A program made the position numbers and the translations under genes. From a virus, in the IMG/VR virus record IMGVR_UViG_3300007734_000761, positions 96,001 to 160,000 of that record: DNA of 64,000 nt. One strand, 5' to 3'. Each line of letters begins with the position of its first letter. Position 1 is the first letter of the stretch. The notes beneath the pieces are model-generated. The model was not told the DNA's origin and made no database searches. It saw nothing but the letters and a program-made list of their open reading frames with translations. Below, piece by piece: positions 31,721 through 53,090 of this stretch.

Positions 31721-31867
31721 TTATCCTTGTCCTACGTATCTTTTTACGTAATTTTTACTAGATTTTGATTTACTTGCTTTTGTTTTAGCATGAATACCAG
31801 GGCGTCTACGTTTAGGTTTTACTTGAAAAACTTTAACTGACGATGTTTTTGTCTTTACCTTTGCCAT
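31721..31867 (-). CDS. 48-aa highly basic peptide (not in the ORF track)
   Basis: MAKVKTKTSSVKVFQVKPKRRRPGIHAKTKASKSKSSKNYVKRYVGQG*. It fills the gap, and the Y.GQG ending resembles small basic proteins of T4-like phages. Confidence 0.75.
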   Translation of the reverse strand: MAKVKTKTSSVKVFQVKPKRRRPGIHAKTKASKSKSSKNYVKRYVGQG

Positions 31868-33506: not shown

Positions 33507-35441
33507 TTATAAAGGCATAATATTGTCTTCACTCAATATACCATCGTCGTTTTTACTTTCAAACAAATGGATTTTTCTACTTTCAGGTTTAGGCATCATA
33601 TCAAACATAAACTTATTTTTATAGTATTGAGCTTTACTTTCTAAGGCTAAAGGACTACCTCCTTTATGATTTGTTTTACCATACTTATCTTCTCCATCAT
33701 CAGATGATGAATACTCTTTACGACCTAAAGCATCTTTACCAAATGGACTTTGTTGAGTGTCTTTAATACTAGTTTTATCTTGAGGTCTACCAGGTAATCT
33801 TACAATATTAGGTTCGTTTTCATCGTAACCCATAGGAACATCAGTTGGAGCATTCGGTACTTGGGTATATCTTCCTTTACCATAAATTGTAGCTAATTGA
33901 TGTGGTGTTCCATATGCCTGTCCAGTTTCTGCTGGGTCATTTCCTTCTTCTTCTACTTGTTTATATCTAAACTGGCGTTTTTTATCTTCAATAACTAAAT
34001 CTCTATACTCATCAATTTCATCTTCACTAAAGTGGAATACATTATCATAAATCCAATCTGTAGGCATTAATCCTGATTCTTGAATTGATTTAGCTAATTC
34101 AACTTTTTCTTTTAGTAACGCAATTCTTTCTTGATCGTAAATAATTGATGGAGTAGTTAAACTAAGCTCAAAATTTGTCATAGCTTCACCATCATAACCT
34201 TGAGTATATAAATGAACTAATGCAATTTTTGTTAACTCACTTACTAAAATTCTTTGAATTCTTTCAATTGTGCGAGCAAAACGAATGTCTTCAGCTGCTA
34301 ATGTTGCTTTACCAGTTAAGTCTTTTTCATAACCCATAAACGCTTTAGGTACTTTAAGAGCAGCAAATAATTTTTCTCTTAAGTATTCTACGTCTTTAAT
34401 ACCATCGTATTCTAAACCTTTTACAGAGTCAATTTTAGTTGTAGTATCATTACCTCTTACAGGAATATAATAGTCTTCCAACATATTCATTACGTTGTAT
34501 TTTAAATTATATTGACCTGTTTTTTCATCCATAAATGGAGTCTTTTTAAGTTTAGACACCATTTTTTGCATATAATTTTCTACTTCTGCTGGAGGAATAG
34601 AACCAATATTAATGTAAAATAATCGTCTATCTGGAGCTCTGGTGATACGGTGAATTAACATCGCATCTTCCATTAAAATATATTGTTTAAACAATTTACG
34701 AGCTGGTTCTAGGTAGCTTCTACCGTATGGAAGATAATTAAGATCACTTAGTAATCTAAAGTGAGCCATTTCATAGTTTTCAAAATAAAATGCGTCTTCA
34801 TCTTTTTGTCCTCCACCATAGCTTGCCCATCCTCCAGCTGATGTTCCATAACCAGCAGCAGCGGCGGCATCATATCTAAATCTTACATAAGATGGATTTT
34901 TAGGATCCATTCCTTCTTCTCTTAAAATATTAAAAGCAGAGAATGGAATAACTTGATATACTCCAAACTTTTCAGCAATTTCTAACTTAAGAAAAAAATC
35001 ACCGTATTTACACATATTTCTTGTCCATGACCATAAATTAAACTCAATGTTTAATACATCATAAAACAAGTTATATAATATTTTTTGAATATTTTCGTCA
35101 GAACTACGAATATGAAGCATTTCTCCAGATTCATTTCTCAAAGTACATTCATCTGCTATAATATCTAAAGCACTACTTACAATAGCATCTGTATCCATTG
35201 ATTCGTAATCACTGTAAAGTTGAGGACGAAGAGATGGATAGTTAATAGCCATCTGTCCAGCATATGCTGATATTCCTGATGTTGTATAAACTCTACTAAA
35301 TCTATCTACAACAGAATTTGTTGCCAATACCCCTGTTGTTTGAATATTGTTTGTATCTAGTATTTTTAGTTCATCTCCCCCTACATTTCTAATAATTACA
35401 TCAGAACTAAAGAGTCGTTTTAAGTTGTCAAATATAGCCAT
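33507..35441 (-). CDS. gp20: Portal vertex protein (T4 gp20-like)
   Basis: ALDIIADE, LMEDAMLIHRITRAPDRR.FYI.IG, EDYYIP.RG, DVEY...KLF.ALKVP and EDIRFAR.I.R motifs. Confidence 0.95.
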   Translation of the reverse strand: MAIFDNLKRLFSSDVIIRNVGGDELKILDTNNIQTTGVLATNSVVDRFSRVYTTSGISAYAGQMAINYPSLRPQLYSDYESMDTDAIVSSALDIIADECTLRNESGEMLHIRSSDENIQKILYNLFYDVLNIEFNLWSWTRNMCKYGDFFLKLEIAEKFGVYQVIPFSAFNILREEGMDPKNPSYVRFRYDAAAAAGYGTSAGGWASYGGGQKDEDAFYFENYEMAHFRLLSDLNYLPYGRSYLEPARKLFKQYILMEDAMLIHRITRAPDRRLFYINIGSIPPAEVENYMQKMVSKLKKTPFMDEKTGQYNLKYNVMNMLEDYYIPVRGNDTTTKIDSVKGLEYDGIKDVEYLREKLFAALKVPKAFMGYEKDLTGKATLAAEDIRFARTIERIQRILVSELTKIALVHLYTQGYDGEAMTNFELSLTTPSIIYDQERIALLKEKVELAKSIQESGLMPTDWIYDNVFHFSEDEIDEYRDLVIEDKKRQFRYKQVEEEGNDPAETGQAYGTPHQLATIYGKGRYTQVPNAPTDVPMGYDENEPNIVRLPGRPQDKTSIKDTQQSPFGKDALGRKEYSSSDDGEDKYGKTNHKGGSPLALESKAQYYKNKFMFDMMPKPESRKIHLFESKNDDGILSEDNIMPL

Positions 35442-35465: not shown

Positions 35466-37094
35466 TTAAATTAGCCAAGTTAAATCCATCATTTGTCCGT
35501 TACCAATATCCATACTCCATTGATTGGGAACTCCATTTCCTCCGCCTATTCCTCGGTAACTTCCACCTTGATAAACACCAGGTCCTACAGATGTTGTTGA
35601 TTTTCCAAAATTTTCTAAACTTGCTATAGTTAATTGATCTCCTGTTTGTTTGTATTTAAGACTTGTGTCTCTTAAAAACATACAAATACCTAAAGCCATT
35701 ACTAAGTCATCATGATAACCATCTTGTGCTTGAGCTTTACCATGTTTCCAAATAAATGTTCTTAATTCTTCTAAAGTACGTTTACTTTGAATAGTTACAC
35801 TTTTTTCATGTAAATAACTAATCATTTTTCCAATAACTAATGGACGAGTACGTAAAGTTGTACTAAAACCCGGTACCATTCCTTGTCCTGAGTCAAATTT
35901 ATTTAAGTACATTTCTACATTAGTAAGAGCTGCATCTTGTCTTGGACTATAGTACATGTTTGGGTAACCTCTTTCAATTGCTGTTTGAACTACGTCCCAT
36001 CCTACGTTAGCATTTTCAATAACTAATAAAGCATTGTTGTATTCACTAGCTATACCAACTAAAAAATGACCATAATCACGAGTTCCTATTTGTCCTTTAT
36101 ATTCTGCTACTTGAGTATTAGTTTCTATGTCAAAAACATGAAAAGCGCTGTAATCTTTTCCATCTCCTCGAGCACAGTCAGCAACGACAGCATACATTTT
36201 TGAATAATCAGGTCTTTCAAATACCCAAAGATTACCATCTAAACCTCTACGCTCTAAAGGTTCTTTTGCTTGTATTAAATACCAGTTTAAAATAGCAGGA
36301 TCAATAGCTGTGTCACCAGATGTTGTAAAATCACAATCACATTCTTGTGCTGCCATTCTAGGTCCTAAATCTACATCTTGTTGGTCTCTCCAGCTTTGAT
36401 CTCGCTCAGGGTGAACATCCCATGGTAATCTTATTGGTAAAAAACTATTTTGACCTTCTTCTGCTTTCACCCAAGTTCTGTGGAACCAGTTTCCTGTGCC
36501 GTATGGTGTAGACATAGCGATACATCCACCACCCGTCGCCAAGGTTTGTTGGGCAGATACGAATACTTCTTCAATATTATCGATAAATGCAGCCTCGTCA
36601 ATAAGTAATAATGATACGGCTTCACTTCGCGCACTATCACCCGCAGCAGATACAGCTTTCATTTGACTACCGTTTGATAATCGTATACTAAGCTTATTAT
36701 TTTCTAAAGATTTAATTTTCATCCAACTAGGTAAATTATCATATCCAAATTTTACCTTAGTTACCATATTTTTTGCTGTTTCTGTTTTAGTAGCAATACA
36801 TAACACGTTTTTATCAGTATGATAAAGCATAAGCCATAAAGCATATGCTGAGCTTAATGTACTGATGCCTAATTGTCTTGATTTATTTACTATATTAAAT
36901 TTATTTTTTAAAAATAATCGTAATACGCTTTCTTGAAACGGGTATAAATTAAAATGAACTCTACCTTTAGTAGGGTGCTGAATCATGTAGTATTTTTTAC
37001 AAAAATAAACAGGATCTTGCTTACATTTAAGAAGTTCTTGTTGAATTGCTTCTTTTATAGAAAGCTGTTTTGGGATATCATTCAATTCGCTCAT
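35466..37094 (-). CDS. gp17: Terminase large subunit (T4 gp17-like)
   Basis: LYPFQ, KSRQLGIST (Walker A), LLIDEAAF (Walker B), STPYG, D.ARGDG.DYS and HDDLVMAL motifs. Confidence 0.96.
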   Translation of the reverse strand: MSELNDIPKQLSIKEAIQQELLKCKQDPVYFCKKYYMIQHPTKGRVHFNLYPFQESVLRLFLKNKFNIVNKSRQLGISTLSSAYALWLMLYHTDKNVLCIATKTETAKNMVTKVKFGYDNLPSWMKIKSLENNKLSIRLSNGSQMKAVSAAGDSARSEAVSLLLIDEAAFIDNIEEVFVSAQQTLATGGGCIAMSTPYGTGNWFHRTWVKAEEGQNSFLPIRLPWDVHPERDQSWRDQQDVDLGPRMAAQECDCDFTTSGDTAIDPAILNWYLIQAKEPLERRGLDGNLWVFERPDYSKMYAVVADCARGDGKDYSAFHVFDIETNTQVAEYKGQIGTRDYGHFLVGIASEYNNALLVIENANVGWDVVQTAIERGYPNMYYSPRQDAALTNVEMYLNKFDSGQGMVPGFSTTLRTRPLVIGKMISYLHEKSVTIQSKRTLEELRTFIWKHGKAQAQDGYHDDLVMALGICMFLRDTSLKYKQTGDQLTIASLENFGKSTTSVGPGVYQGGSYRGIGGGNGVPNQWSMDIGNGQMMDLTWLI

Positions 37095-40438: not shown

Positions 40439-40693
40439 ATAAATTTTTAATTTAAGTTTACCATTTCCTTTAATAGCTCTATGCCATTTGTGTTTAGGAA
40501 TGTAAATTGGTTTATTTAATGAAGTTGGTAATTCGTTGTCTAATTGAATTTTCCAATTTGTTTCACCAATTATTTCAATTGTTCTGTCTTCATTATCACG
40601 ATGCCACATCAATTCTATAGGATCAATGTTTTCATCAAATTCCCTAATAATATATTTGTCAGTAATTTCTAAATCTTTATACGGCTTTATCAT
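40430..40693 (-). CDS. Small cupin-like protein
   Basis: WHRD.EDR...W..QLD...IP...WHR.IKG pattern. Confidence 0.65.
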   Translation of the reverse strand: MIKPYKDLEITDKYIIREFDENIDPIELMWHRDNEDRTIEIIGETNWKIQLDNELPTSLNKPIYIPKHKWHRAIKGNGKLKLKIYLV

Positions 40694-41102
40694 CTGTAAG
40701 AGGACCGCCTACAACCCAAGCATTACAAGTTCGAGCTGCAGCACATTTAAACTTTAAAAACCTACAGTATCCTAATTGACCTGCTTTAATAACATCAAAT
40801 GGATCTTCTGTACCTTCATCACTACCTATTCCTTTAGCTATGCAATCTAATGTTTTTGTTGTAATATCAAATGCAGCACAGTTACCACAACGAGAAGATT
40901 TAGCTTCTTCTATAGAATCAAGTTTCCACATGTCTACTTTATCCTGCCAAAATTTATCGTTTGGTTCATTTGGGTTTAGAGGACCATATCCATACTCATT
41001 AATTGCTTTTTGTCTGTTTTGAAGATTTAATTCAATATTTTGAGTGGGGGCAGGACATTTACTTATTTCTGCTTCGTTTAATATATTAATTAGTTTTATC
41101 AT
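40677..41102 (-). CDS. Tagged (MIKLINILNE) Cys-rich putative internal head protein
   Basis: N-terminal tag; CP.PTQ, YGP.NP, CGNCAAF and GYC..LKFKCAA.RTC.AW. Confidence 0.7.
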   Translation of the reverse strand: MIKLINILNEAEISKCPAPTQNIELNLQNRQKAINEYGYGPLNPNEPNDKFWQDKVDMWKLDSIEEAKSSRCGNCAAFDITTKTLDCIAKGIGSDEGTEDPFDVIKAGQLGYCRFLKFKCAAARTCNAWVVGGPLTDDKAV

Positions 41103-41419
41103 TTTTTATCTTTAATTAACAATTCACCTAAAACTTCTAAACGACCAACTTCTCTTTGAAATTCAATTTGAGACATGTCTAAAGAGATTTTTTTATAAGT
41201 TTCCTCGTATTCTTTTTTTGCTTTTTCTAAATCTAATTTACCTTCACTTGCCTTTTTGTAATAGGGTAATTTAACTTTAAAGTGGTGCCAAGTTAAAAGC
41301 GCTAAACCTCCTTTTTTGTGAGCATTATCAGCAATTTTTTTAGCTCCACTCATACGAGTTTGACTAAAATCTTCAAATTGGTTTTTTGCTTCTACTAGTA
41401 TGTCTTTAAATTTAATCAT
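41099..41419 (-). CDS. Tagged (MIKFKDILVE) putative internal head protein
   Basis: N-terminal tag; ATGA overlap with neighbours. Confidence 0.7.
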   Translation of the reverse strand: MIKFKDILVEAKNQFEDFSQTRMSGAKKIADNAHKKGGLALLTWHHFKVKLPYYKKASEGKLDLEKAKKEYEETYKKISLDMSQIEFQREVGRLEVLGELLIKDKK

Positions 41420-41775
41420 TTTTTTAATCGTTGAGTTTTTCTTTTAGATGCTTCTTTTCTGGCAGTGATGTATGTTAGTCCTTTTTTTAAACGAGCTTTT
41501 ACTTCAGGATTTTTGGCTTTACTATATGCTGCTCTTACACGTTGATGAATTAAGTTAATAATCTGTGATTGGCGAGCATGGCTTTTTGCTTTAAAAGATG
41601 ATTTAGACAATGTATTTTTAATGTCTTGAACAGTTTTAAATTTAACACCTACAGTATCTGTTGGATCTTCATCTGTGTATAAACGGCGACTTGATCCTTT
41701 TGGCTTTTTACCTGTGCCTACTTTAGGATCAGCCTCATTTAAAGATTCTTTTAGAAGATCTACTAGTTTAATCAT
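41416..41775 (-). CDS. Tagged (MIKLVDLLKE) basic putative internal head protein
   Basis: Tag followed by DPKVGTGKKPKGS.RRLYTDEDP.DT. Confidence 0.7.
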   Translation of the reverse strand: MIKLVDLLKESLNEADPKVGTGKKPKGSSRRLYTDEDPTDTVGVKFKTVQDIKNTLSKSSFKAKSHARQSQIINLIHQRVRAAYSKAKNPEVKARLKKGLTYITARKEASKRKTQRLKK

Positions 41776-42500
41776 TTTGTTTTACCCCATGTTTTACCTT
41801 TACCTGGTCTTTTACATTGAGAAGGTGTAGGTCTACATGATGGATATTTTGATCTTACCTCACCTTTTTTACGGCCACAAGGTTTACATTTTCCATCACG
41901 ACAAGTATTACAATCTACCCATCCTCCTGTTTTACCTGGTGCTCCTTTACGTTTAAACCAAGTTCTTAATGTTTCTTTTTTAGCTTCATCTAATTCAGAT
42001 TTTCTATTATTAATATAAGTTTCAATATCTTCGGCTTTATAGCCTAATAGTTGACCTATTCTTCTAGCATCTTCATCAGTAGCTTTATATGACAAATAAC
42101 CATTGTATTTTTCTGCTATGTCTTTTAACTCATTAGCTTCATTTTCTGCTCCTTTTACATAAAAAACATAAGCTCTATGGGGATTTGAAGGAACTTTAAT
42201 AGTACCTAAATCAAACTTTTTTACAATATCCCAAAAATTTTTTTCAGGAAAATCCATGCCATCTAAAACCATAAAACCTAATTTTCGTTTTCCATCTAAA
42301 ACAGTTTTTATAGAACCTTTATCCTCGTATGCTTCTTCAGCACTAATTTCTTCTTTTAGTCCCTTCCAAATATTTCCTTTACGACATCTAACAATAGCAC
42401 CAGACTTATATGCTGAAGGTTTACTGTAACGACGATCTGCTATGCGTTTACAGCGATCTTCAGTAAGTACTTCAAGTAATATGTTAGTAAGTTTAATCAT
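41772..42500 (-). CDS. Tagged (MIKLTNILLE) three-module putative internal head protein
   Basis: Modules (PSAY.SGA.V.CRK; central domain; LR.WF...GWVDC...CGR...YP.CRP) separated by LKEE and LDE. Confidence 0.7.
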   Translation of the reverse strand: MIKLTNILLEVLTEDRCKRIADRRYSKPSAYKSGAIVRCRKGNIWKGLKEEISAEEAYEDKGSIKTVLDGKRKLGFMVLDGMDFPEKNFWDIVKKFDLGTIKVPSNPHRAYVFYVKGAENEANELKDIAEKYNGYLSYKATDEDARRIGQLLGYKAEDIETYINNRKSELDEAKKETLRTWFKRKGAPGKTGGWVDCNTCRDGKCKPCGRKKGEVRSKYPSCRPTPSQCKRPGKGKTWGKTK

Positions 42501-43375
42501 ACAGAAATTGAAGTTGATATGTCACCTGTAGGTATTAACTTACCACCCATATTTTCTATTTTTTGTTTCATTTCTTCAAAGTTTTTTGGTATTACACTTA
42601 CTTTAAAACTTTTTGGGTTTTCTTGAACAAATTTAAAAAAATCATTTAATGTAGGAAATAAACCTGTTATATTAGGACGATTTTTATAATCATATTTTTT
42701 TAGTTCAACAGCTTCTCCGGGTATTTTTAAGTACTGTTTTTTTTCTAAAAATGGTTTTAAAAATCCATATTTAGTTGCTCTAAATACTGTTATTTTTTTT
42801 AATTTACCATTAAAATAAAAAATTCCTAATTCCTTTTTTATTCCATTTTCTACACTTCCATATTGTACTGCTAGTCTTCTTTGTGCTTCTCTAGGTAATT
42901 CTATAGTAAAATTTTCTGTTACCGAAAAATCTATTTTATTTACGTTTTTATCTATTTTTATTTTTCTTAAGGCTTTAGATAAATCAATGCCTTGAGTCAA
43001 ATCAGAAGTAGGAGCTGATGAAACTGTAAACTCATCATCTATGTCTACTCCTAAGTCTTTTGCTTTAATAGCTGCACCTTCTACAGGCATTATAATGCCA
43101 TTCTGCAATAAAGCTTTTATAAACGTACTAGCGTTACCTGTTCCTTTAATGTTGAATACTTTTTTAACATCATCTACATTGAAATGATTTATGTCTTCTA
43201 AAGATTCCATTTTCAAAACAATGTCTTGAAATCTAGGTCCTGAGCCTCTAACATTAGATATTTTACTTTCCCAGTCATCTGTTAAAGTGTAGAACTTCTT
43301 TATCTGTGGCATTTCAGCCAAATGTCTTTTTACAGCTTCTACTAGTATTGCTTTTATTAAATTTCTTTTTTCCAT
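42497..43375 (-). CDS. Hypothetical protein with an N-terminal LIKAILVE/LAE tag variant
   Basis: ORF translationally coupled within the tagged array. Confidence 0.6.
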   Translation of the reverse strand: MEKRNLIKAILVEAVKRHLAEMPQIKKFYTLTDDWESKISNVRGSGPRFQDIVLKMESLEDINHFNVDDVKKVFNIKGTGNASTFIKALLQNGIIMPVEGAAIKAKDLGVDIDDEFTVSSAPTSDLTQGIDLSKALRKIKIDKNVNKIDFSVTENFTIELPREAQRRLAVQYGSVENGIKKELGIFYFNGKLKKITVFRATKYGFLKPFLEKKQYLKIPGEAVELKKYDYKNRPNITGLFPTLNDFFKFVQENPKSFKVSVIPKNFEEMKQKIENMGGKLIPTGDISTSISV

Positions 43376-43376
43376 A

Positions 43377-44009
43377 TTACCAAAATCCTGAGTATGATGA
43401 TTTTAATCCTAATAATTTAGCGTAGCGAGGTAAACGACAACTCCAGTAACTTGCTTTTGTTCTGTCTTTTTTATTAGGACAATCGTGACGTTTTGAAAAA
43501 GCAGCTCTTGCTTTAGAGTTATTAATTTTAGCTGACAAACCAGTAGTGTCACCAAATGATACTTTTTTAACTCCACCACCTGGTTTTCTTACATAAACAT
43601 AGAATTTTTTAGATCCACCACGTTTTGGTTTACCAATTGGAGGTATTTTTTTCTTTTTATCTGCTTCTTCTAAGTCTACTTCTTCTAATAGTAAGTCTAT
43701 TGGAACTAATTTACCATTGTAAAAATCAAACGTACCAATTTCTGTTTCTTCTAAAAGTTGCTTGTCAGCTCCATCGAAAGTTATTTGTTTATTTTCATGT
43801 AACCATCTAGCTTCTTGCCATAAGTCAAGAAAAGATTCACTGCCATATCTAAATGTATTTTCAGTAATAGGAAGTTTTTGATAAACATGATATAACATGT
43901 TAGGACTAATTTTTTCTGGGTTAGTCGATTCTGTTAGTAAAGGAGCTTTAGGTCTGGCGCAAGTTGGACATCCTGATCCTTCTAACAATATGTCTTTTAA
44001 CTTAATCAT
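43377..44009 (-). CDS. Tagged (MIKLKDILLE) two-module putative internal head protein
   Basis: FRYGS..F..L..EAR module, then KKFYVYV...VSFG...F..RH.C..K....YWSC module after LEE. Confidence 0.7.
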   Translation of the reverse strand: MIKLKDILLEGSGCPTCARPKAPLLTESTNPEKISPNMLYHVYQKLPITENTFRYGSESFLDLWQEARWLHENKQITFDGADKQLLEETEIGTFDFYNGKLVPIDLLLEEVDLEEADKKKKIPPIGKPKRGGSKKFYVYVRKPGGGVKKVSFGDTTGLSAKINNSKARAAFSKRHDCPNKKDRTKASYWSCRLPRYAKLLGLKSSYSGFW

Positions 44010-45760
44010 TTTGGTCTGTTCGTTGATTTTACTTTTAAACTAGGAAGTATACCTCCTGCTGAATTTCTTATATCTATTTGATAAATAGTTTCACCTCCTT
44101 CAGGACTGTTAGTAGTAACTCTTACTTCACATGACTTACTTGATATTGATGGATATTTTACTTTTACTTTAGTTACTTCTCCAATAAGTTCATCAATATC
44201 TTCCTTTTTATTTATATCTTTTATATAAAGTTCGCCTGGTTTGATTTGTCTTACATAATAATACCCATAACCATAACTAGATCTTAAGAAAATAATGATT
44301 TTTTGTCCATCATAATCAGTAATATCTTCCCACTGTGCCGGTACTCCTTCTTGTTTAACGTAATTTTCTAAACCCTCTGCTATTTTTTCAGGATTAACAC
44401 CAGTAATTTCAATTATTTTCTTAGTTAAACTATCATCCTTCATAAAACTATCTTCATCAAAATAAATATTTTTATCTGGGCTTTGTTTGATGAATTTTAA
44501 CGTTCCTCCATTATAAATGTAATCACCTTTTGGATCTTTTAATGAAATTTTATAATCTTGACCGTTAGCTTTAATAATAATATCAGCTATTTTTGTGCCT
44601 ATATCTTCAGGTTCTTCTAAACTTGGTTGACGTTTAGTATCTATTTTACCTGTACCTTCTATATCGTCTGCTTTTATAGTTTGAGGATTAATTTCAAGAT
44701 AATCAAAAAGTTGTTTTACTTCTTCATCTTCTATATCTTTTAATTCTTTACCTGCACTCTGTTTTAACTTATCTACAAATTCTTTTTCATAAGCTTCTCC
44801 TTTATTAGCCCCTGATGCTAATATTACACCAACAGGTCCAAACTCAGTTTCAAAACTATACATAGGAAATCTATTGCTACCATAAGGTTTAACATTTATA
44901 CCTGTTTTAGGAGGAATTATTGTAATGTTAGCGTCTGGATATAAAGTTTGTAGTAAAGCTTCGAATTGTTCGCTAGGTATTTTATTTGGGTTTGCTACTC
45001 TTGAACTTTTGTTCATGGGTTTAAATCCAAATTCTTTATTTTCTTCAGAATTTAAAATTCTTTGAACTACTTTACCACTATTTTGACCTATAGAACCTTC
45101 CAAAAGTAAAACTTGTCTTAATGCTATGCGAAACGCCGTTGGGTACTTTTTACCTATTTCTAAAAGCGTCTTTTTTTTTGACTCTACTAGAGGTGTAGTA
45201 GTAGTTTCTTCTGCTGTAGGTAAACTTTCATTTCCTGTTGGTGGAGCTCCCTCTCCTCCTCCTCCTGCGAATGGGTTAGATCCTTCAGAAGGTAATGGTG
45301 TTTCTGTAGATTCATTGGCCATTGCTTCTTCACTTGGTTCAAGTCCTAACGGAGCTCCCATCATTAATAAGCGAGCTATAGCATCAATTGCTCTTCCTCG
45401 TTCTCCTACATTTAATAAGTAGTATTTTTTACCAGCTATTTTAGCAATCCAAGTTCTTCCCATGTAAATCATGTAAAAAAACTGGTTGTTATGTAAAATT
45501 ACTTTAAAAGTTGTAGGTATAGGAGCAATAACGTAAATACCTGTTATATAATCTAAAAAATCATTACTAAGTAATGTTTGGAGAGATTCTTTTAATGTAG
45601 GGTAACTATAGAGTATATAACCTATTGGATCTTCTTCAAATGTAGGAACTTTCTTAGTATCTTTGTTGAACTTTTCAATGTAAGCCTTATCCGTTTCCTT
45701 AGATGTACGGAATTTTTGGTATTCTTCGTCGAATATTTTTTGAAAAGTTTTAATATTCAT
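44006..45760 (-). CDS. Modular protein with a C-terminal PD-(D/E)xK restriction-endonuclease-like domain
   Basis: N-terminal domain (PIPTTFKV.LHN.Q.F), Pro/Glu linker, LVE/LLE sites, then NKG..YE...KIADIII......ISLK. Confidence 0.55.
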   Translation of the reverse strand: MNIKTFQKIFDEEYQKFRTSKETDKAYIEKFNKDTKKVPTFEEDPIGYILYSYPTLKESLQTLLSNDFLDYITGIYVIAPIPTTFKVILHNNQFFYMIYMGRTWIAKIAGKKYYLLNVGERGRAIDAIARLLMMGAPLGLEPSEEAMANESTETPLPSEGSNPFAGGGGEGAPPTGNESLPTAEETTTTPLVESKKKTLLEIGKKYPTAFRIALRQVLLLEGSIGQNSGKVVQRILNSEENKEFGFKPMNKSSRVANPNKIPSEQFEALLQTLYPDANITIIPPKTGINVKPYGSNRFPMYSFETEFGPVGVILASGANKGEAYEKEFVDKLKQSAGKELKDIEDEEVKQLFDYLEINPQTIKADDIEGTGKIDTKRQPSLEEPEDIGTKIADIIIKANGQDYKISLKDPKGDYIYNGGTLKFIKQSPDKNIYFDEDSFMKDDSLTKKIIEITGVNPEKIAEGLENYVKQEGVPAQWEDITDYDGQKIIIFLRSSYGYGYYYVRQIKPGELYIKDINKKEDIDELIGEVTKVKVKYPSISSKSCEVRVTTNSPEGGETIYQIDIRNSAGGILPSLKVKSTNRPK

Positions 45761-46386
45761 TACTTACGACGTAATTTTGCTTTTTCTATTCTTTCACCTT
45801 TAGCAACACCGGCACCAAAAGTATTTTTTTCACCTTTTTTACCAAAACGTTTTGCGTCTCTAGCACGTTTATAATCAGTATCGCCTCTTCCTTCATAGAA
45901 TTGAGCACCTAAAATAACATCTGAGTCAGAAGAACGCATAGATGGCATATCATCCATTTCTTCACTTTCTTCTCCAGCTAAATAATTATAAACTGAGTTT
46001 AGATAGTCCTCTGCTATAGTAAGTTTTGACTGTACCCATGCATCTAACTGTTCTCCATCGTCAATCATATTACACAACTTATCAGTTAAACTTTTAATAG
46101 AACGAAGCTGACCATGAGCCATATCTGATTCATCATCTGGCTGCTTCCAATCATCTTCTTCTAAATCCTCAGCATCAAAAGACATATTTGGTCCTGTTGG
46201 ATTTGGAACTAATGGTTGTTCTTTCATATTTTTAGCAGCACGTAATGCTTTAAAATCAGCACCTGTAATTTTATCTTTAGGTTCAGCTGCAGATGCTATT
46301 TTCATTTGTTTATCAGACAATTCATTAAGCTCTTTTAAAGCTTGCTGCATGCGCCATTCGTGGATGTCAAAATTATTGTTAGTCAT
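45760..46386 (-). CDS. Hypothetical modular head-associated protein
   Basis: N-terminal FDIHEW..LKE|LNE; KITGADFKALR module; MA.GQL....LDAWVQSKLT.AEDYL module. Confidence 0.65.
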   Translation of the reverse strand: MTNNNFDIHEWRMQQALKELNELSDKQMKIASAAEPKDKITGADFKALRAAKNMKEQPLVPNPTGPNMSFDAEDLEEDDWKQPDDESDMAHGQLRSIKSLTDKLCNMIDDGEQLDAWVQSKLTIAEDYLNSVYNYLAGEESEEMDDMPSMRSSDSDVILGAQFYEGRGDTDYKRARDAKRFGKKGEKNTFGAGVAKGERIEKAKLRRK

Positions 46387-46726
46387 TTTTATATTCTGTT
46401 ACTTCGGCGCCTAATACATTAGGCATTTTTTTACGGATATTTTCTAAAATCTTTTTAAGTCTTTCAGAAGTTACTTTACCTTCTTTAGCACTTACCTTTA
46501 TTCCTGTTGAGTCTTTAATCTCAAATTTAAAAGGTGGTTCAGACATTTTTGATTCTTTAGCTAATTTAGAATAGTTACTAGGATTGCTTAACCATTTCAT
46601 AGCACTATTTCTTAAACCTTCTGATTTAAATACAAAACCTGGTGTTAGTACCTCTACTACTTCCTTTTCTTCAGAAATAATACCAGCTAACGCCTGCATT
46701 CTTTTTATTTCAACTGCTGATTGCAT
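46379..46726 (-). CDS. Hypothetical protein with an N-terminal RMQALAGII motif
   Basis: Motif matches the scaffold C-terminus RMQQLAGII. Confidence 0.65.
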   Translation of the reverse strand: MQSAVEIKRMQALAGIISEEKEVVEVLTPGFVFKSEGLRNSAMKWLSNPSNYSKLAKESKMSEPPFKFEIKDSTGIKVSAKEGKVTSERLKKILENIRKKMPNVLGAEVTEYKND

Positions 46727-46727
46727 A

Positions 46728-47072
46728 TTATTTTTCTAACTTTGCCATTTCAGCATAAAGTCTTTTCATTTCGTTATGCATCTTTTCTATTTCACTCATT
46801 GAATTTTCATATCCTTCGTGTGTCATAGTTTCATACATACCTTTTACATTATTATGCATTTCACCCATTTCAGCCATTAATTCTTCTTTTTTCTTTCCTA
46901 CATTAAAGGCTTCAACGATTTCTTTTAATTCGTCTTTAGCAGCTTTAGGATCGTTGGCATAAAGAGCTTTTAAATATTGTTTTACATCTCCTTTAGTGCA
47001 ACCAACTTTTGCACCCATTTTTCCGTCTTTAGTTTTTTTATAGACACATTTTCCTTTGGCTTTGTATGGCAT
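46728..47072 (-). CDS. Hypothetical protein
   Basis: MPYK.KGKCVYKK...KVGC...YL.ALYAN, then LKE; ATATTTAT upstream at 47093-47100. Confidence 0.65.
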   Translation of the reverse strand: MPYKAKGKCVYKKTKDGKMGAKVGCTKGDVKQYLKALYANDPKAAKDELKEIVEAFNVGKKKEELMAEMGEMHNNVKGMYETMTHEGYENSMSEIEKMHNEMKRLYAEMAKLEK

Positions 47073-47087
47073 AATTATAATATTAGT

Positions 47088-47678
47088 TTATGATAAATAT
47101 GTATCAATCTTAGCTCTTTGGTCAGCAATCCATTGTTTAGTTTCTTTTATTTGTTCTGGAGTTAAACCTCTACCATCCCAACTTTCTACTTCTCCAGTTT
47201 CACTCATAACTTTTTCAAAACCATTAGAAACAAAATCATCAAATTCTTTTTCGGTTTGATCTAAAATGTGTAAATGATTTTTAAAATACATATTCTTCGC
47301 GTATTCATCAAAGATACCGGCCAGTTTCATGTTAGTTTCTTCTTTAGTCACGCACTTTGGACATTTATGCGCAAGCTTATAAATATGTTTTACATACTCA
47401 CTTTGTCTAGCTAAAGGTTCACTACATTGAGGACAAGTAAGAGGCATAATATTTGTGTCTTTAAACTTAGCTAACTTACTTACAGTACGTTTTACACCAT
47501 TTTTAATAGTCCACGTTTTACCATTTTCATCCCAAACGTCTCCTTCTTGTCTTTTTACTTGAGATTCATAACCTGCCTGAATTGTAGTTCTATCTCCAGT
47601 TTTTTTCGTAATAATATTACGCATTCGCTGAACTTCACGTTCAGTAAACTGTCTATTTAGTAAAGTTTCTTTACTCAT
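47088..47678 (-). CDS. Hypothetical protein with two CxxC pairs (zinc ribbon)
   Basis: EGDVW.E.GKTWTIKNG, CPQC and CPKC motifs. Confidence 0.7.
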   Translation of the reverse strand: MSKETLLNRQFTEREVQRMRNIITKKTGDRTTIQAGYESQVKRQEGDVWDENGKTWTIKNGVKRTVSKLAKFKDTNIMPLTCPQCSEPLARQSEYVKHIYKLAHKCPKCVTKEETNMKLAGIFDEYAKNMYFKNHLHILDQTEKEFDDFVSNGFEKVMSETGEVESWDGRGLTPEQIKETKQWIADQRAKIDTYLS

Positions 47679-49977
47679 ATTTAAATTTATATAACTTTTT
47701 TATTGATTCTCTTGAGTCTTCTGGATTGTTTTTTATTCCTGTTCCACCAGCTTGAATAAACTGACTAACGTTTGAACCCACATCATCAATCAACATATAA
47801 CCTGGTTTTGCTTCTGTGTGTTTGTCTTTAGCTTGTTTGTATACTCTTCTGTCTTGAGGAATATTTAAATGTTTGTCTACCCATTCATTTTTTCCCTTTT
47901 TAGCATCTCCGTTTGGATCTAAACCTGGTGATGATAATATCCATACTTCTATACCTTTTTCATCAGCTATTTTCATAACGGCCTTATAAAGTTCTTCTCC
48001 ACCTGGATTCCAAGGCATTGTTGACCAAAACTTTACTTTGCCTTTATTAATTATATCCCAAGCTTTATTAGCACCATATTTTCCAATGTATGATTTAAAA
48101 TCTAAATTTTCTTTGTTGTATTTTTTAAATTGATCATCAAAACCAGCTAATACTCCATCTAAATCAAAGTAGATTCTTGTAATAGGAGGATTTGTTTCTT
48201 TAGATTCATTTAACATTCCAATATTATAAATGCTAGGATTTTGTTTTCCATAGTCTCTCATTAATATACCGGCAATAGCATTGGCATCATTTTCATGTTC
48301 ACTACCAGTTTCGCCTGAATCTGGTTGTAATAAGCCCATTTCGTTTTGTTTAGCATGAACTAACTCATGAGCTAACGTGCGAAGAACATCAACTATATTT
48401 CTGTTACTAGGATTGACAAATATATGATGTTTTGATGGAACATATGCTCCAAAACTTGGTTGATCTTCACCATATTCATATCTAATTTCAAACGAAGGAG
48501 GATTATGAATTTGAAGTTCGTTGCAAGCATAAGTCATGAATTTTTCAAAAAGTGAATTTTTATCAACAGACTCATTTAAAGATAAAGTTTTATCTATAAA
48601 AGAATTTTTTAGATTATTAAGTTTTTCTAAATAACCTGTGTTTCTTAAATTTTTAAATGCTAAGTTTTCTAATGAATATTCACCATCTTCATCTAATCCT
48701 GTTTGTCTAAAGTTTTTAAGACGTTCTTTAATTTTATTTGTAAGTTCTATCGCTTTTTCAGGATTATTTTTACCTATTTTTTCTAATTTATCTATTTGTT
48801 GTTTAAATAACTTTGCTTTCTTTTCAATTTCTTCGTCAGGAATATTTATTTCTACAAAAGACGGTTTACGTAACCATTTATCATTCATTAAGCTGTATTC
48901 ACCTCTATATTCAGGATGGTCTTTATTATCTTGAATGTAAACTTCAATATTTTGTTTGCCTAATTTTAAATCATGAACCCTATTCCAGTTAACCTTTGCT
49001 TCATCAAAGTATTTTTTTAACAATTCAGGATTTTCAAATTTGTCAAAATCAACAACAATGTGTAAATCTATGTCAGATGTTGGAGTATAATTATAATTTA
49101 CACTACTTCCTGTTAAAAGAATATCTTCAAACGGTTCAGGTATTTCTAATCCTTCCCAAAAATAATTAGCTACTTTTAATAATAACTCTTTTACTTTTGG
49201 GTCTACTTTATCATCAGTATCAAAAATTAAAGGATTTAATTTATTTTGACTCTTATATTCTAACCAAACCCACTGAGGTTGTTTTTTAGGGTTTGGTTGA
49301 GTTCCTTCTTGTAAACTAGCTGGTTCAGGAAAATTAATTCCTAAAACTCTCTGAATGTCATCTAAGTATCCTTTTTGTATTACTGCTTCAGGAAATAAAC
49401 TTTTAAAGTAGTTATATGTAGTATTATAATCGTTTAATGCTTTTTTATCTCCAGGATTATTTTTTACTTGAAGATATCTTTGTCTTAATTCAGCTATTGT
49501 AGCTCTAAAGTCAGTTCCACTAACTCTATCACCATCACTATCTACAAATTGATCATCTACAATTTCTTCTTGAACTCTATCACCAAAAGCCTCTTTTAAA
49601 CCTTTAAAATATTCTAAATCATCTGCTTCTTTACCAGCAGCAGCAACATAAGCTTCTCTATTTAAGTCATCTCCAAACCATCTATAAAGATCTCTAATAG
49701 GAGATTTAGTCTTAGCAATTTCAACTTTAATTTTTGGATTTGGTTGGGCTTTTAAATAAATGTCCCAAATTGCTTTACTTTGTTCTGCTGTAATTCCACC
49801 TCTTTTACCGTGACCTATTAATACATTTACTTGAGTAATATAAGGTTTTGCTGCTAATTGTTGAGCAGCGGCAAGATGACCTTTATGTGGTGGTTTAAAA
49901 CCTCCAGGATACCAACAAATTTCAGGTTTTTTGGCTACTTCTTCTCCTATTAATTTTCCTATTTCTGCTACGTTCAT
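47671..49977 (-). CDS. Four-domain polyprotein: HIGH cytidylyltransferase-like, Pol-beta nucleotidyltransferase, HExxH metallopeptidase-like and HAD 5'(3')-nucleotidase-like
   Basis: YPGGFKPPHKGH; LLTGSSVNYNY...SDIDLHIVVD; RTLAHELVH.KQ...E..ANA.AG; IYFDLDGVLA.F...ILSS...K..W...LIDD. Linkers are LQE, LNE and LNE. Confidence 0.8.
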   Translation of the reverse strand: MNVAEIGKLIGEEVAKKPEICWYPGGFKPPHKGHLAAAQQLAAKPYITQVNVLIGHGKRGGITAEQSKAIWDIYLKAQPNPKIKVEIAKTKSPIRDLYRWFGDDLNREAYVAAAGKEADDLEYFKGLKEAFGDRVQEEIVDDQFVDSDGDRVSGTDFRATIAELRQRYLQVKNNPGDKKALNDYNTTYNYFKSLFPEAVIQKGYLDDIQRVLGINFPEPASLQEGTQPNPKKQPQWVWLEYKSQNKLNPLIFDTDDKVDPKVKELLLKVANYFWEGLEIPEPFEDILLTGSSVNYNYTPTSDIDLHIVVDFDKFENPELLKKYFDEAKVNWNRVHDLKLGKQNIEVYIQDNKDHPEYRGEYSLMNDKWLRKPSFVEINIPDEEIEKKAKLFKQQIDKLEKIGKNNPEKAIELTNKIKERLKNFRQTGLDEDGEYSLENLAFKNLRNTGYLEKLNNLKNSFIDKTLSLNESVDKNSLFEKFMTYACNELQIHNPPSFEIRYEYGEDQPSFGAYVPSKHHIFVNPSNRNIVDVLRTLAHELVHAKQNEMGLLQPDSGETGSEHENDANAIAGILMRDYGKQNPSIYNIGMLNESKETNPPITRIYFDLDGVLAGFDDQFKKYNKENLDFKSYIGKYGANKAWDIINKGKVKFWSTMPWNPGGEELYKAVMKIADEKGIEVWILSSPGLDPNGDAKKGKNEWVDKHLNIPQDRRVYKQAKDKHTEAKPGYMLIDDVGSNVSQFIQAGGTGIKNNPEDSRESIKKLYKFKYE

Positions 49978-50816
49978 GGTTTAGCAAATGTTTTTACTGC
50001 TCCTACTGCTTCTCTATAATTTAGAGGTTTAATAATTTTTAAAAACTTTTCAACAGTTTTAAATTGATCCTTAATATTTTTAACAGCATCACTAAATTTC
50101 TTCTCTGCTGCTTTTTTCTTTTCTTCTTTTGCCTTTAAAGTTTCAGGATCTGGTAAGTCTTTTGATGTTTTTACATCAGAAGGTTGGGGTTTACTGAAAC
50201 TAGATCTGTATTTTTCTGGATCTGTTTGTATTAACTGTTTAAAGTAATCTTCTAATTCACCTGACTTTAGTACTTTTTCAAATTTATTAACATTTGCTTT
50301 TTCAGCAGGTGATAATTCTGTTTGAACAACTAAATACTCAATACCAGGAATGCTTTTATAGCTACTTATTTGGTTATATACTTTAGCCCAATTATTTAAC
50401 ACAACTTCTTTAGGTAATTTTCTACTTCTATTAAAATTTCTTAAAAAGCTAACAATAGGACTTCCGTAAAGTGTAATAACCATTACTTTATAACCATTTT
50501 GTTGTGCGTTACTCACAATTTCTGCTGTTTCTTTAAAATTTTGTCCTGTAGTATCATAAATAAAATTTTGTTTTTTACTAATAGCATCAGGAATAGCCTT
50601 AGTTCTTATAATAATATTATTTTTACTTATGTTAGGTCTATCAGGATCATCTTCTGGATTAAAAGTATCAGGATTGAATACTCTAAAATCTGAAGGTATA
50701 TTTCTTACTAAATCATTTATTAAAGTTGATTTACCCATTCCTGCTGCTCCTGATAGAATTATTGCTTTTGGTTGTGTGCCAAAAACTTCTAATAACAAAG
50801 ACTGCAGATTAATCAT
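49974..50816 (-). CDS. Tagged (MINLQSLLLE) zeta-toxin/AAA_33-like P-loop kinase
   Basis: PKAIILSGAAGMGKST, FNPD, FIYDTTG, GYKV and RN..R.R.LP motifs. Confidence 0.7.
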   Translation of the reverse strand: MINLQSLLLEVFGTQPKAIILSGAAGMGKSTLINDLVRNIPSDFRVFNPDTFNPEDDPDRPNISKNNIIIRTKAIPDAISKKQNFIYDTTGQNFKETAEIVSNAQQNGYKVMVITLYGSPIVSFLRNFNRSRKLPKEVVLNNWAKVYNQISSYKSIPGIEYLVVQTELSPAEKANVNKFEKVLKSGELEDYFKQLIQTDPEKYRSSFSKPQPSDVKTSKDLPDPETLKAKEEKKKAAEKKFSDAVKNIKDQFKTVEKFLKIIKPLNYREAVGAVKTFAKP

Positions 50817-50820
50817 ACAT

Positions 50821-50828
50821 ATAAATAT
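50821..50828 (-). promoter_or_regulatory. ATATTTAT putative late promoter (start of the tagged array)
   Basis: 4 nt before the ATG at 50816. Confidence 0.65.
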
Positions 50829-50829
50829 G

Positions 50830-51612
50830 TTACATTTCTAGTTTTACTGATGTAGGTAATTTTTCAAATAAAGGTTTTTGATCTGGGTTTTCTAATATAT
50901 AAATGTCGTAAATATTTTTAAACATAGTAAAGTAGTCTTCTAATGGTTTTTCAGGTTGAACAATTTCCCAACCATTGCCTTGCAATTTACCTTCTTTACC
51001 TTTTCGCTTACTACTTTTTAACCATAAAATCCCACTTTCTTCAATTTTTACATCGCTGTGTTCATTCCAAGCATTAGCATAAGCTGATAACTGGAGATTG
51101 TGACTAGTATGTAAACTATTACTTGTTTTAGTATCTAATAACCAAACTTTATCGTTCATTTTTACTACTAAGTCACAAGTTCCAGCATATTTGTGTTCAT
51201 GACTCAATAAATGTATTTCACTAGCTATTAATTCTGGTTTGCAAGTATTCCAAAAATCACTAAATTTCAAAATCATTTTCCAAACTTCTAAACTATAATT
51301 AGCTCGTTTGTTTTCATCTACCCAAACAATTTCTTCACCTTTTAAAAATCTTTCAATAGCATCATGAACTTGAGTTCCTTCTTCACTAGCTCTTCTAACA
51401 ATAATATCACTGTTATGACCTACATCTTTCAACCAACTTTCAAAAAATTTATTTTTAGGATAAAAACCTAAAACTGTAGTTACAGAAGGATAATAGTCTC
51501 CATTTTCTGTTTTGTAAAATCGAGAATCTAAAAAGTTAATTTGTTCTCCTTCGTGTTCAACAATCCTTTTTAAATAAGGATGTTTCTCAATGTTGTGGCC
51601 TTTTTCTATCAT
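50830..51612 (-). CDS. PD-(D/E)xK exonuclease (Cas4/RecB-like phage exonuclease)
   Basis: YPSVTTVL, GT.VH..IE, SE..L, YAGTCD, LDTKTS and QLSAYA motifs. Confidence 0.85.
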   Translation of the reverse strand: MIEKGHNIEKHPYLKRIVEHEGEQINFLDSRFYKTENGDYYPSVTTVLGFYPKNKFFESWLKDVGHNSDIIVRRASEEGTQVHDAIERFLKGEEIVWVDENKRANYSLEVWKMILKFSDFWNTCKPELIASEIHLLSHEHKYAGTCDLVVKMNDKVWLLDTKTSNSLHTSHNLQLSAYANAWNEHSDVKIEESGILWLKSSKRKGKEGKLQGNGWEIVQPEKPLEDYFTMFKNIYDIYILENPDQKPLFEKLPTSVKLEM

Positions 51613-52535
51613 ATATTCATTTTAAGTAACATAATGTCACTAAAAGTTAGTGGATTAGCATTATGTAATTTTTTTGTAAAAGTTTCAAAACCCATTTCAC
51701 TTGGATCTTTATCATCCATATCAACCCAATATACTTCTTTACCGTAATTCGTTAAGGTAAGCGCGTGATCTAACGCGTCTTTTTTAGCATCGCGATCTAA
51801 TGCGATATAAATAGTTTTTACCGAAGATTCAACGAGTTTCTTCATAAGAGCATTAGAAATACTTTTACCAAAGAGAGGAATAGCGTTACGGCGCACAGAA
51901 ATAGCATCAAATGCTCCTTCAACAAGAATAATCGGCATCTCCCAAGATATGAGTGCCTCAAAACCAATAATCTCATTTTTGTTACATTTGGGTGTATCAT
52001 ACTTTCTACTAGCATTCGGATCCATAGTTCGAGCCACGAAATAGTTGATACTATAATTGTTATCATAAGAGGGAATAATGATGCTATTAGCATAAGGTCC
52101 AGTAGATGCATATCCTATGTTGTATTTTATAAGTTCAGTTTCAGTAATGCCTCGTTTTTTTAAATAAACTTTAGCTCTTCTTGCTTCTAAACTTGTGTCT
52201 GCTATTAAGTGTTTAAAATCTTTAGGTAATTGAACTTCTGTGTGTTCTACTTTTAAGTCTTCTTTAGGACTAACACCTAAAATACTTCTTAATTCAAGAG
52301 TTTTTTCTCTAGGTGTTTTTATTTTTTTAAATAAAGTCGGAAGTTTAAGTCCTTTAACGTTACAAACCCAACAGTGATAAGGATTTTCACCTTTTAAATT
52401 AGTTTGTAGTTTTACTTCTAATTTAGGTTTATGATGGTTACAAAAAGGACAATTAAAGGCATAATTACCACTACTAGACTTTTTGCCTTTACCTAATACG
52501 CTTTCAAGACAGTTTAATAATAGTATGTTATCCAT
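51609..52535 (-). CDS. DNA primase (zinc finger plus TOPRIM); likely start MDNILLL at 52535
   Basis: CPFC..H...HCWVC, YL.KRGI, IIIPSY, LVEGAFDA, IALD.DA and KDP motifs. Confidence 0.9.
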   Translation of the reverse strand: MDNILLLNCLESVLGKGKKSSSGNYAFNCPFCNHHKPKLEVKLQTNLKGENPYHCWVCNVKGLKLPTLFKKIKTPREKTLELRSILGVSPKEDLKVEHTEVQLPKDFKHLIADTSLEARRAKVYLKKRGITETELIKYNIGYASTGPYANSIIIPSYDNNYSINYFVARTMDPNASRKYDTPKCNKNEIIGFEALISWEMPIILVEGAFDAISVRRNAIPLFGKSISNALMKKLVESSVKTIYIALDRDAKKDALDHALTLTNYGKEVYWVDMDDKDPSEMGFETFTKKLHNANPLTFSDIMLLKMNI

Positions 52536-52542
52536 TATTAAT

Positions 52543-52571
52543 ACTATAATAAAAAAGGCTTGGAAAACCAA
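52543..52571 (-). promoter_or_regulatory. TTGGTT-N17-TATAGT promoter for primase
   Basis: -35 at 52571-52566, 17-nt spacer, -10 at 52548-52543, 7 nt before the ATG at 52535. Confidence 0.6.
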
Positions 52572-52574
52572 GCC
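52551..52574 (-). terminator. Rho-independent terminator overlapping the primase promoter
   Basis: Minus strand reads GGCTTGG-TTTT-CCAAGCC-TTTTTT. Confidence 0.85.
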
Positions 52575-52604
52575 CTTAATCTTATTTATTTTAATATTTA
52601 ATGT

Positions 52605-53090
52605 TTATAAATCAATTATATGAATTAAACCACTTTTTGGATAAGTATGTTCTTTACCATCATTTTTTTTCATTATAATATTATCTCCATCAATTTTGGT
52701 AATTCTACCTACTTGTTGTCTAACACTATTCATATCTTTATATGACATTTTAGGTAAAACATTTAAACCTACTTTTAAATCTGCCATTTGGTTTGATTTT
52801 GGTTGGTCCATTCCAAAGGGTTTTGTTACATCTTTAAGATAAAAGAATGGTATTTTTTCTTCTTTTAATCCTATTTTTTTATCTCCAAAAGCATCATTAA
52901 TTGCATCCCAATCATCATGACTTACAGAAATTTTCTTTTTAGAACCATCTTCAAACTCAACATTATATGATTTGTCACCATTTTGTGTAGCATTTTTAAT
53001 TGTTTTTCCTTCACATTTAACTTCACTTAGTTGAGATTGTGGAGTTAATTTGTTTTCAATTAAAAACTTTTTTAAGTCAAAATTATCCAT
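52605..53090 (-). CDS. Tagged (MDNFDLKKFLIE) putative internal head protein
   Basis: Tag variant with LSE and LKEE linkers; ATATTTAT at 53095-53102. Confidence 0.65.
   Translation of the reverse strand: MDNFDLKKFLIENKLTPQSQLSEVKCEGKTIKNATQNGDKSYNVEFEDGSKKKISVSHDDWDAINDAFGDKKIGLKEEKIPFFYLKDVTKPFGMDQPKSNQMADLKVGLNVLPKMSYKDMNSVRQQVGRITKIDGDNIIMKKNDGKEHTYPKSGLIHIIDL

Follow-up and report, generated by a model that had tools for sequence, protein, structure and literature searches.

Why do unrelated proteins, encoded side by side in a phage genome, begin with nearly the same ten residues? The question is raised by an array of minus-strand genes in a window of 64,000 nucleotides, which comprises bases 96,001-160,000 of one 176,311-bp phage contig (IMG/VR record IMGVR_UViG_3300007734_000761). 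Proteins of this array share an N-terminal leader, called a tag below, that ends in glutamate and resembles the capsid targeting sequence of T4, reportedly described by Mullaney and Black in 1996. From the comparisons presented here, it is on balance probable that the tags form a T4-type capsid-targeting propeptide system with an enlarged and fast-swapping cargo set, in a distant and mostly uncultured branch of the T4-like phages. The mechanism is already known from T4; new here are the phage group and the candidate cargo, which includes enzymes. The system also shows interchangeable tags and the exchange of genes at the tag.

The contig, rated by IMG/VR as 100% complete, has a G+C content of 32% and carries almost all of its genes on the minus strand. 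It belongs to an uncultured T4-like water phage whose nearest cultured relatives by capsid protein are Flavobacterium phage vB_FspM_immuto (49% identity; immuto below) and Microcystis phage Mel-JY01 (45%). By analogy with the nearest cultured phage, the host group is probably Bacteroidota. Coordinates refer to the window unless they are marked as genome coordinates or assigned to another record.

A Shared N-Terminal Tag

The tagged genes of the array, together with one further tagged gene of the window and one outside it, are the following.

40677-41102, minus strand: 141-residue protein with seven Cys, tag MIKLINILNE (Glu10); virus-only family, function unassigned
41099-41419, minus strand: 106-residue basic helical protein, tag MIKFKDILVE
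41416-41775, minus strand: 119-residue very basic protein (mature isoelectric point, pI, 10.6), tag MIKLVDLLKE
41772-42500, minus strand: 242-residue basic protein with eight Cys, tag MIKLTNILLE; weak DUF5872-like N-terminal region
42497-43375, minus strand: 292-residue protein, shifted tag MEKRNLIKAILVE (Glu13)
43377-44009, minus strand: 210-residue basic protein, tag MIKLKDILLE; C-terminal part matching phrog_7595 (function unassigned)
44006-45760, minus strand: 584-residue protein, Glu12 variant tag MNIKTFQKIFDE
46379-46726, minus strand: 115-residue protein, third kind of tag, ...RMQALAGIISE
47671-49977, minus strand: 768-residue multidomain enzyme-like protein, Glu12 variant tag MNVAEIGKLIGE
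49974-50816, minus strand: 280-residue P-loop kinase (Zeta_toxin/AAA_33 family), tag MINLQSLLLE; first gene after a ATATTTAT motif
52605-53090, minus strand: 161-residue protein, tag B, MDNFDLKKFLIE (Glu12)
Genome 14193-14924, outside the window: 243-residue sigma-70 family protein (L005), tag MTTLKQLLLE; most similar to SigK/SigE (1e-11)

The tag is far more frequent at gene starts than chance predicts. Among the 206 called genes of the whole genome, the strict pattern M-x-x-[LF]-x-x-[IL]-L-x-E opens ten, six in the array and four elsewhere (MIKLKSLLLE, MTTLKQLLLE, MISLTNILNE and MITLSSLLPE). It has no internal occurrence in any six-frame open reading frame (ORF) of the genome, and the internal frequency predicts 0.03 such starts. 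A conservative null, in which the residues of positions 4, 7, 8 and 10 were shuffled among genes with the tagged genes kept in, gives 1.5 expected starts and a maximum of seven in 20,000 shuffles. A looser core, hydrophobic-x-x-hydrophobic-hydrophobic-x-Glu beginning at residues 2-8, yields 18 hits in 17 proteins against 2.35 expected (p = 8e-11), adding the MDNFDLKKFL[IV]E proteins and three large array proteins with Glu at position 12 or 13. Leaders ending in (L/I)-x-E comprise ten proteins with [IL]-L-x-E and Glu10 and seven more with Glu at position 9, 12 or 13. A preliminary description of the window had quoted eight N-termini as instances of a shared tag. All eight lie on the minus strand where it had placed them, the six strict ones with Glu10, and scans of the genome and of its relatives (see below) agree that the motif exceeds the N-terminal background.

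Two trivial sources of the shared start were considered and rejected. The Leu codons of the tag vary (TTA, CTA, CTT, CTG and TTG) and the upstream DNA is unrelated among the tagged genes; the tag is therefore conserved, and selected, at the level of the protein and not of the DNA, and a DNA-level repeat is ruled out as its source by the same observations. Paralogy is ruled out by the near-zero similarity of the protein bodies: BLAST among the 17 core-motif proteins with residues 1-14 removed returned only three short, weak matches, none of them between two Glu10 proteins. Most of the Glu10 proteins are basic, with a mature pI of 9.4-10.6 in seven of ten. Cys-rich and basic cargo, as the preliminary description had it, is indeed encoded here, in the proteins with seven and eight Cys and in those whose mature pI reaches 10.6.

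Correspondence with the T4 Capsid Targeting Sequence

In T4, the capsid targeting sequence heads IPI, IPII/IPIII, Alt and the gp24 propeptide and is removed by gp21 (PMC9026906; PMC3012670; PMC5694885). The same ten-residue template is found here, in keeping with the comparison drawn in the preliminary description. The T4 N-termini (NC_000866), MKTYQEFIAE in IPII and IPIII, MAKINELLRE in gp24 and MELITELFDE in Alt, all fit a template of Met1, hydrophobic residues at positions 4, 7 and 8, and Glu10. When the pattern is run over the whole T4 genome, it returns only the four known gp21-processed, packaged proteins and one small ORF, gp61.1, and the pattern is therefore specific in T4, the one phage with a known answer. 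The ten-residue T4 sequence suffices to load foreign proteins into T4 heads, with targeting dependent on residues 4 and 7, and processing on residues 8 and 10 (PMC9026906; PMC8442874). These functional positions match those conserved in the present tag, in which 4, 8 and 10 are near-invariant, 7 is almost so, and 5, 6 and 9 are variable. An Asp at position 10 of the T4 sequence prevents processing and leaves targeting intact.

The likeness to T4 extends beyond the tag. T4 internal proteins are basic (PMC8442874), and in T-even phages such proteins are diverse and have only this sequence in common (PMC3012670); here, too, the tag is common to otherwise unrelated, mostly basic proteins, and the cargo genes vary between close relatives. 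Both phages have a protease of the same family, an (L/I)-x-E-rich scaffold and the same gene order of portal, core proteins, protease, scaffold and capsid protein. The present phage differs from T4 in having about twice as many Glu10-tagged genes (10 versus 5) and further tag classes, and in that its system is known from sequence alone. Scans of the tagged proteins against Pfam, PHROGs and NCBIfam found no T4 internal-protein or Alt family, and the likeness to T4 resides in the tag and mechanism, not in the cargo.

The hit gp61.1 (NC_000866 18966-19130; L135) encodes a hypothetical protein of 54 residues that begins MKTFKEFIKE, the first seven residues being those of IPI. All other hits of the T4 scan are known head proteins.

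A second point of comparison is provided by the giant phages phiKZ, 201phi2-1 and SPN3US, in which many head-internal or ejection proteins are cut after Glu by a gp21-family protease, and paralogs have conserved N-termini thought to act like a capsid targeting sequence (PMC5694885; PMC7411985). Their cuts fall at (S/A/G)-x-E or A-x-E sites, with a small residue at P3, and their propeptides mostly exceed 100 residues (PMC5694885; PMC7411985). In contrast, the tags described here have a length of 10-13 residues and, like those of T4, Leu or Ile at P3. A literature search found no paper describing such a tag system for this phage group, and none of the papers that it listed linked the term "capsid targeting sequence" to cyanophages, Flavobacterium or metagenomes.

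Conservation of the Tag in the Kinase Family

The 280-residue protein is assigned to the Zeta_toxin/AAA_33 family, with zeta/PezT/Pnkp-like fold matches, and the kinase that the preliminary description counted among the cargo is thus borne out by family and fold. Its homologs were sought among 5.8 billion proteins. The tag is kept in all 101 homologs whose N-terminus aligns at residue 1 (101/101), down to 33% identity; the remaining 19 are tag-B carriers, fragments or sequences in which a miscalled start leaves the tag further in. Ile2, Leu4, Leu8 and Glu10 are as invariable as the Walker A residues, and Leu/Ile7 is only slightly more variable. Free variation is seen at positions 5, 6 and 9, and variability peaks in the linker at 11-15.

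The tag also behaves as a replaceable part. Two kinase homologs carry tag B (MD[NT]FDLR...LLE) in place of the Glu10 tag (tag A), with exactly four residues between the Glu and the conserved PKAIIM, the same as behind tag A. In more distant kinases, which are tagless, the protein opens with strand 1. AlphaFold models the tag of the kinase as a low-confidence helix of residues 4-13 ahead of a strand at 17-23, and by this prediction it lies outside the fold.

Exchange of Cassettes at the Tag

Related loci were collected by a search with the 768-residue protein alone, which gave three near-identical contigs, and with the kinase-homolog alignment, which gave 80 loci. Swaps were compared in three IMG/VR contigs with 91-98% identity to this phage in the flanking genes. 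At matching map positions, these close relatives keep the tag but join it to other bodies. For example, the 141-residue Cys-rich protein is replaced by an unrelated 80-residue protein with the tag MLKL[QT]NILTE, the body of the 119-residue protein is replaced in L013 by an unrelated 285-residue protein with the tag MIKLVDILKE, and the body of the tag-B protein is replaced in L012/L014 by a 129-residue protein with the same tag. The 119-residue gene loses its DNA homology to the relatives after 41746, where codon 10 finishes; in the 141-residue gene, homology stops 12-21 nucleotides into the tag. The breakpoints thus lie at the end of or inside the 30-nucleotide tag, and the description of the cargo as a swappable set is sustained, with recombination breakpoints at the tag itself.

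Such exchange has a parallel in the hyperplastic regions of T4-type phages, in which short flanking motifs, the promoter-early stem-loops (PeSLs; PMC2839356), are the sites of the recombination that shuffles ORFans. As in those regions, near-identical phages differ here by whole-gene replacement at fixed positions, with a short conserved recombination arm. In contrast to a PeSL, a non-coding cassette of promoter and terminator (PMC2839356), one arm here is the tag coding sequence itself, and each swap therefore yields an in-frame tagged protein.

The close relatives also hold extra array genes that are not at those positions here (L013:8537-9223; L012 and L014:12908-13417). One of these extra genes resembles the GIY-YIG-type homing endonuclease gene of the present genome (genome 49755-50354).

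Tagged Proteins in Related Phages

The tag is also enriched around the kinase homologs of other phages. In 77 IMG/VR loci (1.1 Mb, 1,460 genes), 135 genes, where 3.5 would be expected, have the core motif beginning at residue 4, and the tagged bodies fall into 20 families, one of which is an NT5C-type nucleotidase. At least seven Glu10 tags occur in a complete relative of 160.8 kb that itself encodes an S77 protease, alongside RMQ/KMQ-LAG leaders and MKLSQLKQIIKEE-type Glu12 leaders. Glu10-tagged genes are also present in immuto and Mel-JY01. In phage RM378, which has a T4-type head, there is no tag enrichment, the single hit being at about chance level. Three adjacent paralogs in Mel-JY01 (record 60276-62718; L121) start MIKLKSLLQE, MIKLKSLLKE and MIKLMSLVTE, each followed by an ISDRVWH segment.

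Individual array proteins have tagged counterparts elsewhere. Homologs of the 141-residue protein in G001 and L070 keep the tag, and the immuto homolog of the 106-residue protein begins MRLLELLRE. A tblastn search with tag B against cultured phages matched the immuto phages alone. The 768-residue protein contains a GGFKPPHKGH nucleotidyltransferase-type motif together with NTP_transf_2, HExxH and NT5C-like 5'-nucleotidase regions; relatives encode the NT5C part separately, behind a tag of its own, MIKLTDILKE. Conversely, the 841-residue immuto gp079 (record 114006-116531) joins modules homologous to the 161-, 208- and 584-residue proteins, which are separate genes here, with the 584-residue protein contributing the match through its N-terminal module. 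Since L-x-E sites lie near its module borders, gp079 is likely, from its sequence, a polyprotein counterpart of the separate tagged genes.

The folds of the smaller proteins offer few names. ESM Atlas look-alikes of the 141- and 210-residue proteins belong only to virus-only, nameless clusters. The 106-residue protein was modelled by AlphaFold2 with a predicted local distance difference test (pLDDT) score of 93.5, its tag opening a helix at residues 4-36, and a search of the Protein Data Bank with this model gave no fold match at E <= 0.001.

Head-Core Genes of the Phage

The head genes of the window have lower coordinates than the array and are as follows.

26738-28474, minus strand: gp23-type major capsid protein (PF07068), with a tag-like N-terminus, MSTINQLLE
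28494-29894, minus strand: acidic 466-residue scaffold protein at the gp22 position, C-terminus RMQQLAGIITK
30034-30693, minus strand: prohead serine protease, T4 gp21 homolog (Peptidase_S77, PF03420, E = 5.7e-31; phrog_207)
31833-32624: 263-residue head-core protein
33507-35441: gp20-type portal (PF07230)
35466-37094: large terminase

The phage has the full T4-type head-core gene set, including the gp21 homolog that the preliminary description had placed in the window. The protease is 33% identical to T4 gp21 over 168 residues and keeps the motifs of the catalytic His and Ser, GEL[DN]HP and SSRG[ML]GS; by analogy, it is presumed to be the tag-removing enzyme. The scaffold contains 26 [LI]-x-E sites against 5.4 expected and 18.7% Glu, which may be compared with 16 sites in 269 residues and 17.5% Glu in T4 gp22, and it has thousands of metagenome homologs. 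The propeptide of the capsid protein is collinear with the 65-residue propeptide of T4 gp23 (the delta piece) and has sites at LLE9, LLE35, LLE50 and IVE59, the last directly before TNTTAGATSG, which aligns with T4 TNIAAGQTSG. A polyprotein of 1,537 residues in the same genome has YILRE ahead of its first module and, at each module joint, N-L-x-E followed by an acidic segment of the EDEFNVDAP type. The 263-residue head-core protein has LKE20 followed by MSTGAGATSGFQTGTGYQ, near-identical to the segment after IVE59 of the capsid protein, TNTTAGATSGFTTGQGYQ.

Conservation of the scaffold's C-terminal motif extends to 120 homologs and, as RWQKLAGIIK and RMQRLAGLRK, to immuto and the relative G001, respectively. 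Followed by a Glu, it also stands at the head of other proteins, such as the 115-residue protein listed above. The third tag type may copy the scaffold's own capsid-binding end, as judged from this resemblance. A complex prediction for the scaffold (alignment A3) with the 106-residue tagged protein (alignment A2) scored 0.00, which is evidence neither way.

Gene Overlaps and a Promoter-Like Motif

The preliminary description had further proposed that most tagged genes are coupled by ATGA overlaps behind ATATTTAT promoters. The coupling stands: genes overlap by four nucleotides, from their coordinates, at six array junctions, and the overlap is ATGA wherever the start context was read. The promoter part needs revision. 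In the whole genome, ATATTTAT occurs 58 times on the coding strand versus seven times on the other, and in 45 cases it lies within 40 nucleotides of a start codon, with a spacing of 0-23 nucleotides before the start. Sites in the window include those upstream of 50816, 53090 and 35441, and the motif directly precedes the kinase gene, the tag-B gene, the portal, one head-core gene and putative tail and fibre genes. It stands at the heads of operons, not before each tagged gene, and is a general promoter-like motif common to structural genes rather than specific to tagged ones. Its distribution fits co-expression with the structural genes; late timing is not proven, as other genes are also preceded by it. 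The motif looks like a phage promoter element very near the start codon, implying very short transcript leaders.

The DNA before the gene of a tagged 246-residue protein (L007; genome about 42896-42940) ends like the 3' half of a tRNA, GGTTCAAACCC..., and a tRNA gene may lie upstream of this gene, judging by that sequence.

Proposed Mechanism and Alternative Explanations

In a T4-type targeting system, the tag would form a short amphipathic helix ahead of the folded body, and through this helix the protein would dock on the prohead's scaffolding core during assembly, a core that includes the acidic gp22-like protein. The gp21-type serine protease would then cut after the Glu of the (I/L)-x-E site, and the mature protein would be retained in the head and leave with the DNA at infection. 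The cargo set would comprise the products of the array at 40677-50816 and of four or more genes in other parts of the genome. Leaders of other kinds that end in hydrophobic-hydrophobic-x-Glu, namely MDNFDLKKFL[IV]E, the Glu12/13 forms and RMQxLAGIIxE, would serve as alternative tags, and new cargo would arise by recombination at the tag. We infer cleavage, docking, packaging and retention, ejection, cargo function and an anti-defence role by analogy with the known systems.

Several points weigh against this reading. No docking partner of the tag is assigned, even by analogy, and a literature search found no virion proteome or N-terminal data for this phage group, immuto included. The definition of the Glu12/Glu13 tags is looser, and chance may account for some of them; one of the 20 body families in the relatives, glutaredoxin-like, is a false positive. 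In the model of the 106-residue protein, the tag is predicted to be continuous with the first long helix of the fold and does not form a separate appendage. Several of the cargo proteins are metabolic-type enzymes (the kinase and the NT5C-like nucleotidase and nucleotidyltransferase-like regions) for which action in the cytoplasm might be expected. For those that resemble nucleotide or NAD-type enzymes, and for the tagged sigma-70 family protein, packaging is not the obvious expectation.

A wider claim is advanced tentatively, as a possibility: that the tags form a general address-label system in abundant uncultured aquatic T4-like phages, the kin of immuto and Mel-JY01, in which interchangeable tags load a recombining cargo for co-injection. 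The cargo would then include enzymes, among them the P-loop kinase, a 5'-nucleotidase, a nucleotidyltransferase-like protein and perhaps a sigma factor, and one of the tags would copy the RMQxLAGII of the scaffold.

Among the alternatives, the one that survives best, though we regard it as rather unlikely, accepts that the tag brings proteins to the prohead core or the protease and denies that they are injected effectors. The tagged proteins would instead be assembly or core parts that are degraded and expelled, like T4 gp67, gp68 and gp22, or proteins that the late protease turns on or off, as with a pro-enzyme or pro-sigma factor. All T4 core proteins do have an N-terminal hydrophobic-hydrophobic-x-E (LLIE in gp21, LIAE in gp22 and LIE in gp67), and immuto gp079 and the 1,537-residue polyprotein look like substrates that are cut into pieces. 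SigK and SigE, which the tagged sigma-70 family protein most resembles, are made as protease-activated pro-sigma factors, and the tagged nucleotide-type enzymes would be useful in the cytoplasm. However, the folded enzyme bodies have few internal sites, compared with 26 in the scaffold, and most of the Glu10 cargo shares its basic character with the internal proteins retained in T4. The rapid turnover of cassettes between near-identical phages likewise suits adaptive cargo better than essential assembly parts.

The tag fits the T4 template position by position and always ends in the P3-P1 motif of the protease, and the capsid protein and scaffold carry related N-termini; these features make it quite improbable that the tag is a recognition sequence for a partner unrelated to the capsid, such as a modifying enzyme, a phage GroEL/GroES or a multi-enzyme complex. 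In favor of a chaperonin partner, the genome seems to encode its own chaperonin pair, a putative assignment drawn from N-termini and the immuto annotation. A leader for a radical-SAM/SPASM maturase was ruled out, as the genome has no SPASM match and its sole Radical_SAM match is weak and lies in a 7-deazaguanine cluster far from the array.

Finally, it is barely credible that the peptide has no function of its own and that the shared start reflects a nucleic-acid signal, such as a recombination site, a downstream box or an initiation element, or arises from AT-rich coding combined with ATGA overlaps: such an overlap does force A at the first base of codon 2, favoring Ile, Lys, Asn or Thr, and the swap breakpoints within the tag DNA mean that the sequence also acts as a recombination substrate, but synonymous codons vary freely with the residues fixed, Glu10 is invariant in the 101 tag-bearing kinase homologs with positions 5, 6 and 9 free, tags A and B swap at a protein boundary, and tagged genes stand both behind promoter-like motifs and inside overlaps.

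Implications

Provided that the tags function as they do in T4, the proteins that the phage carries into the cell can be listed from their first ten residues, and injected proteins would become readable from sequence alone. The listed cargo would be prime candidates for anti-defence and takeover functions across a large and mostly uncultured group of freshwater and marine phages. The breakpoints of the tag swaps show a simple route to new cargo; under the same condition, any gene captured would become cargo once it recombined at the tag. The second and third tag types, together with the likeness to the scaffold C-terminus, could help to settle what the T4 targeting sequence binds. The tag could also let foreign proteins be packed into the capsids of Bacteroidota phages, as has been done with T4.

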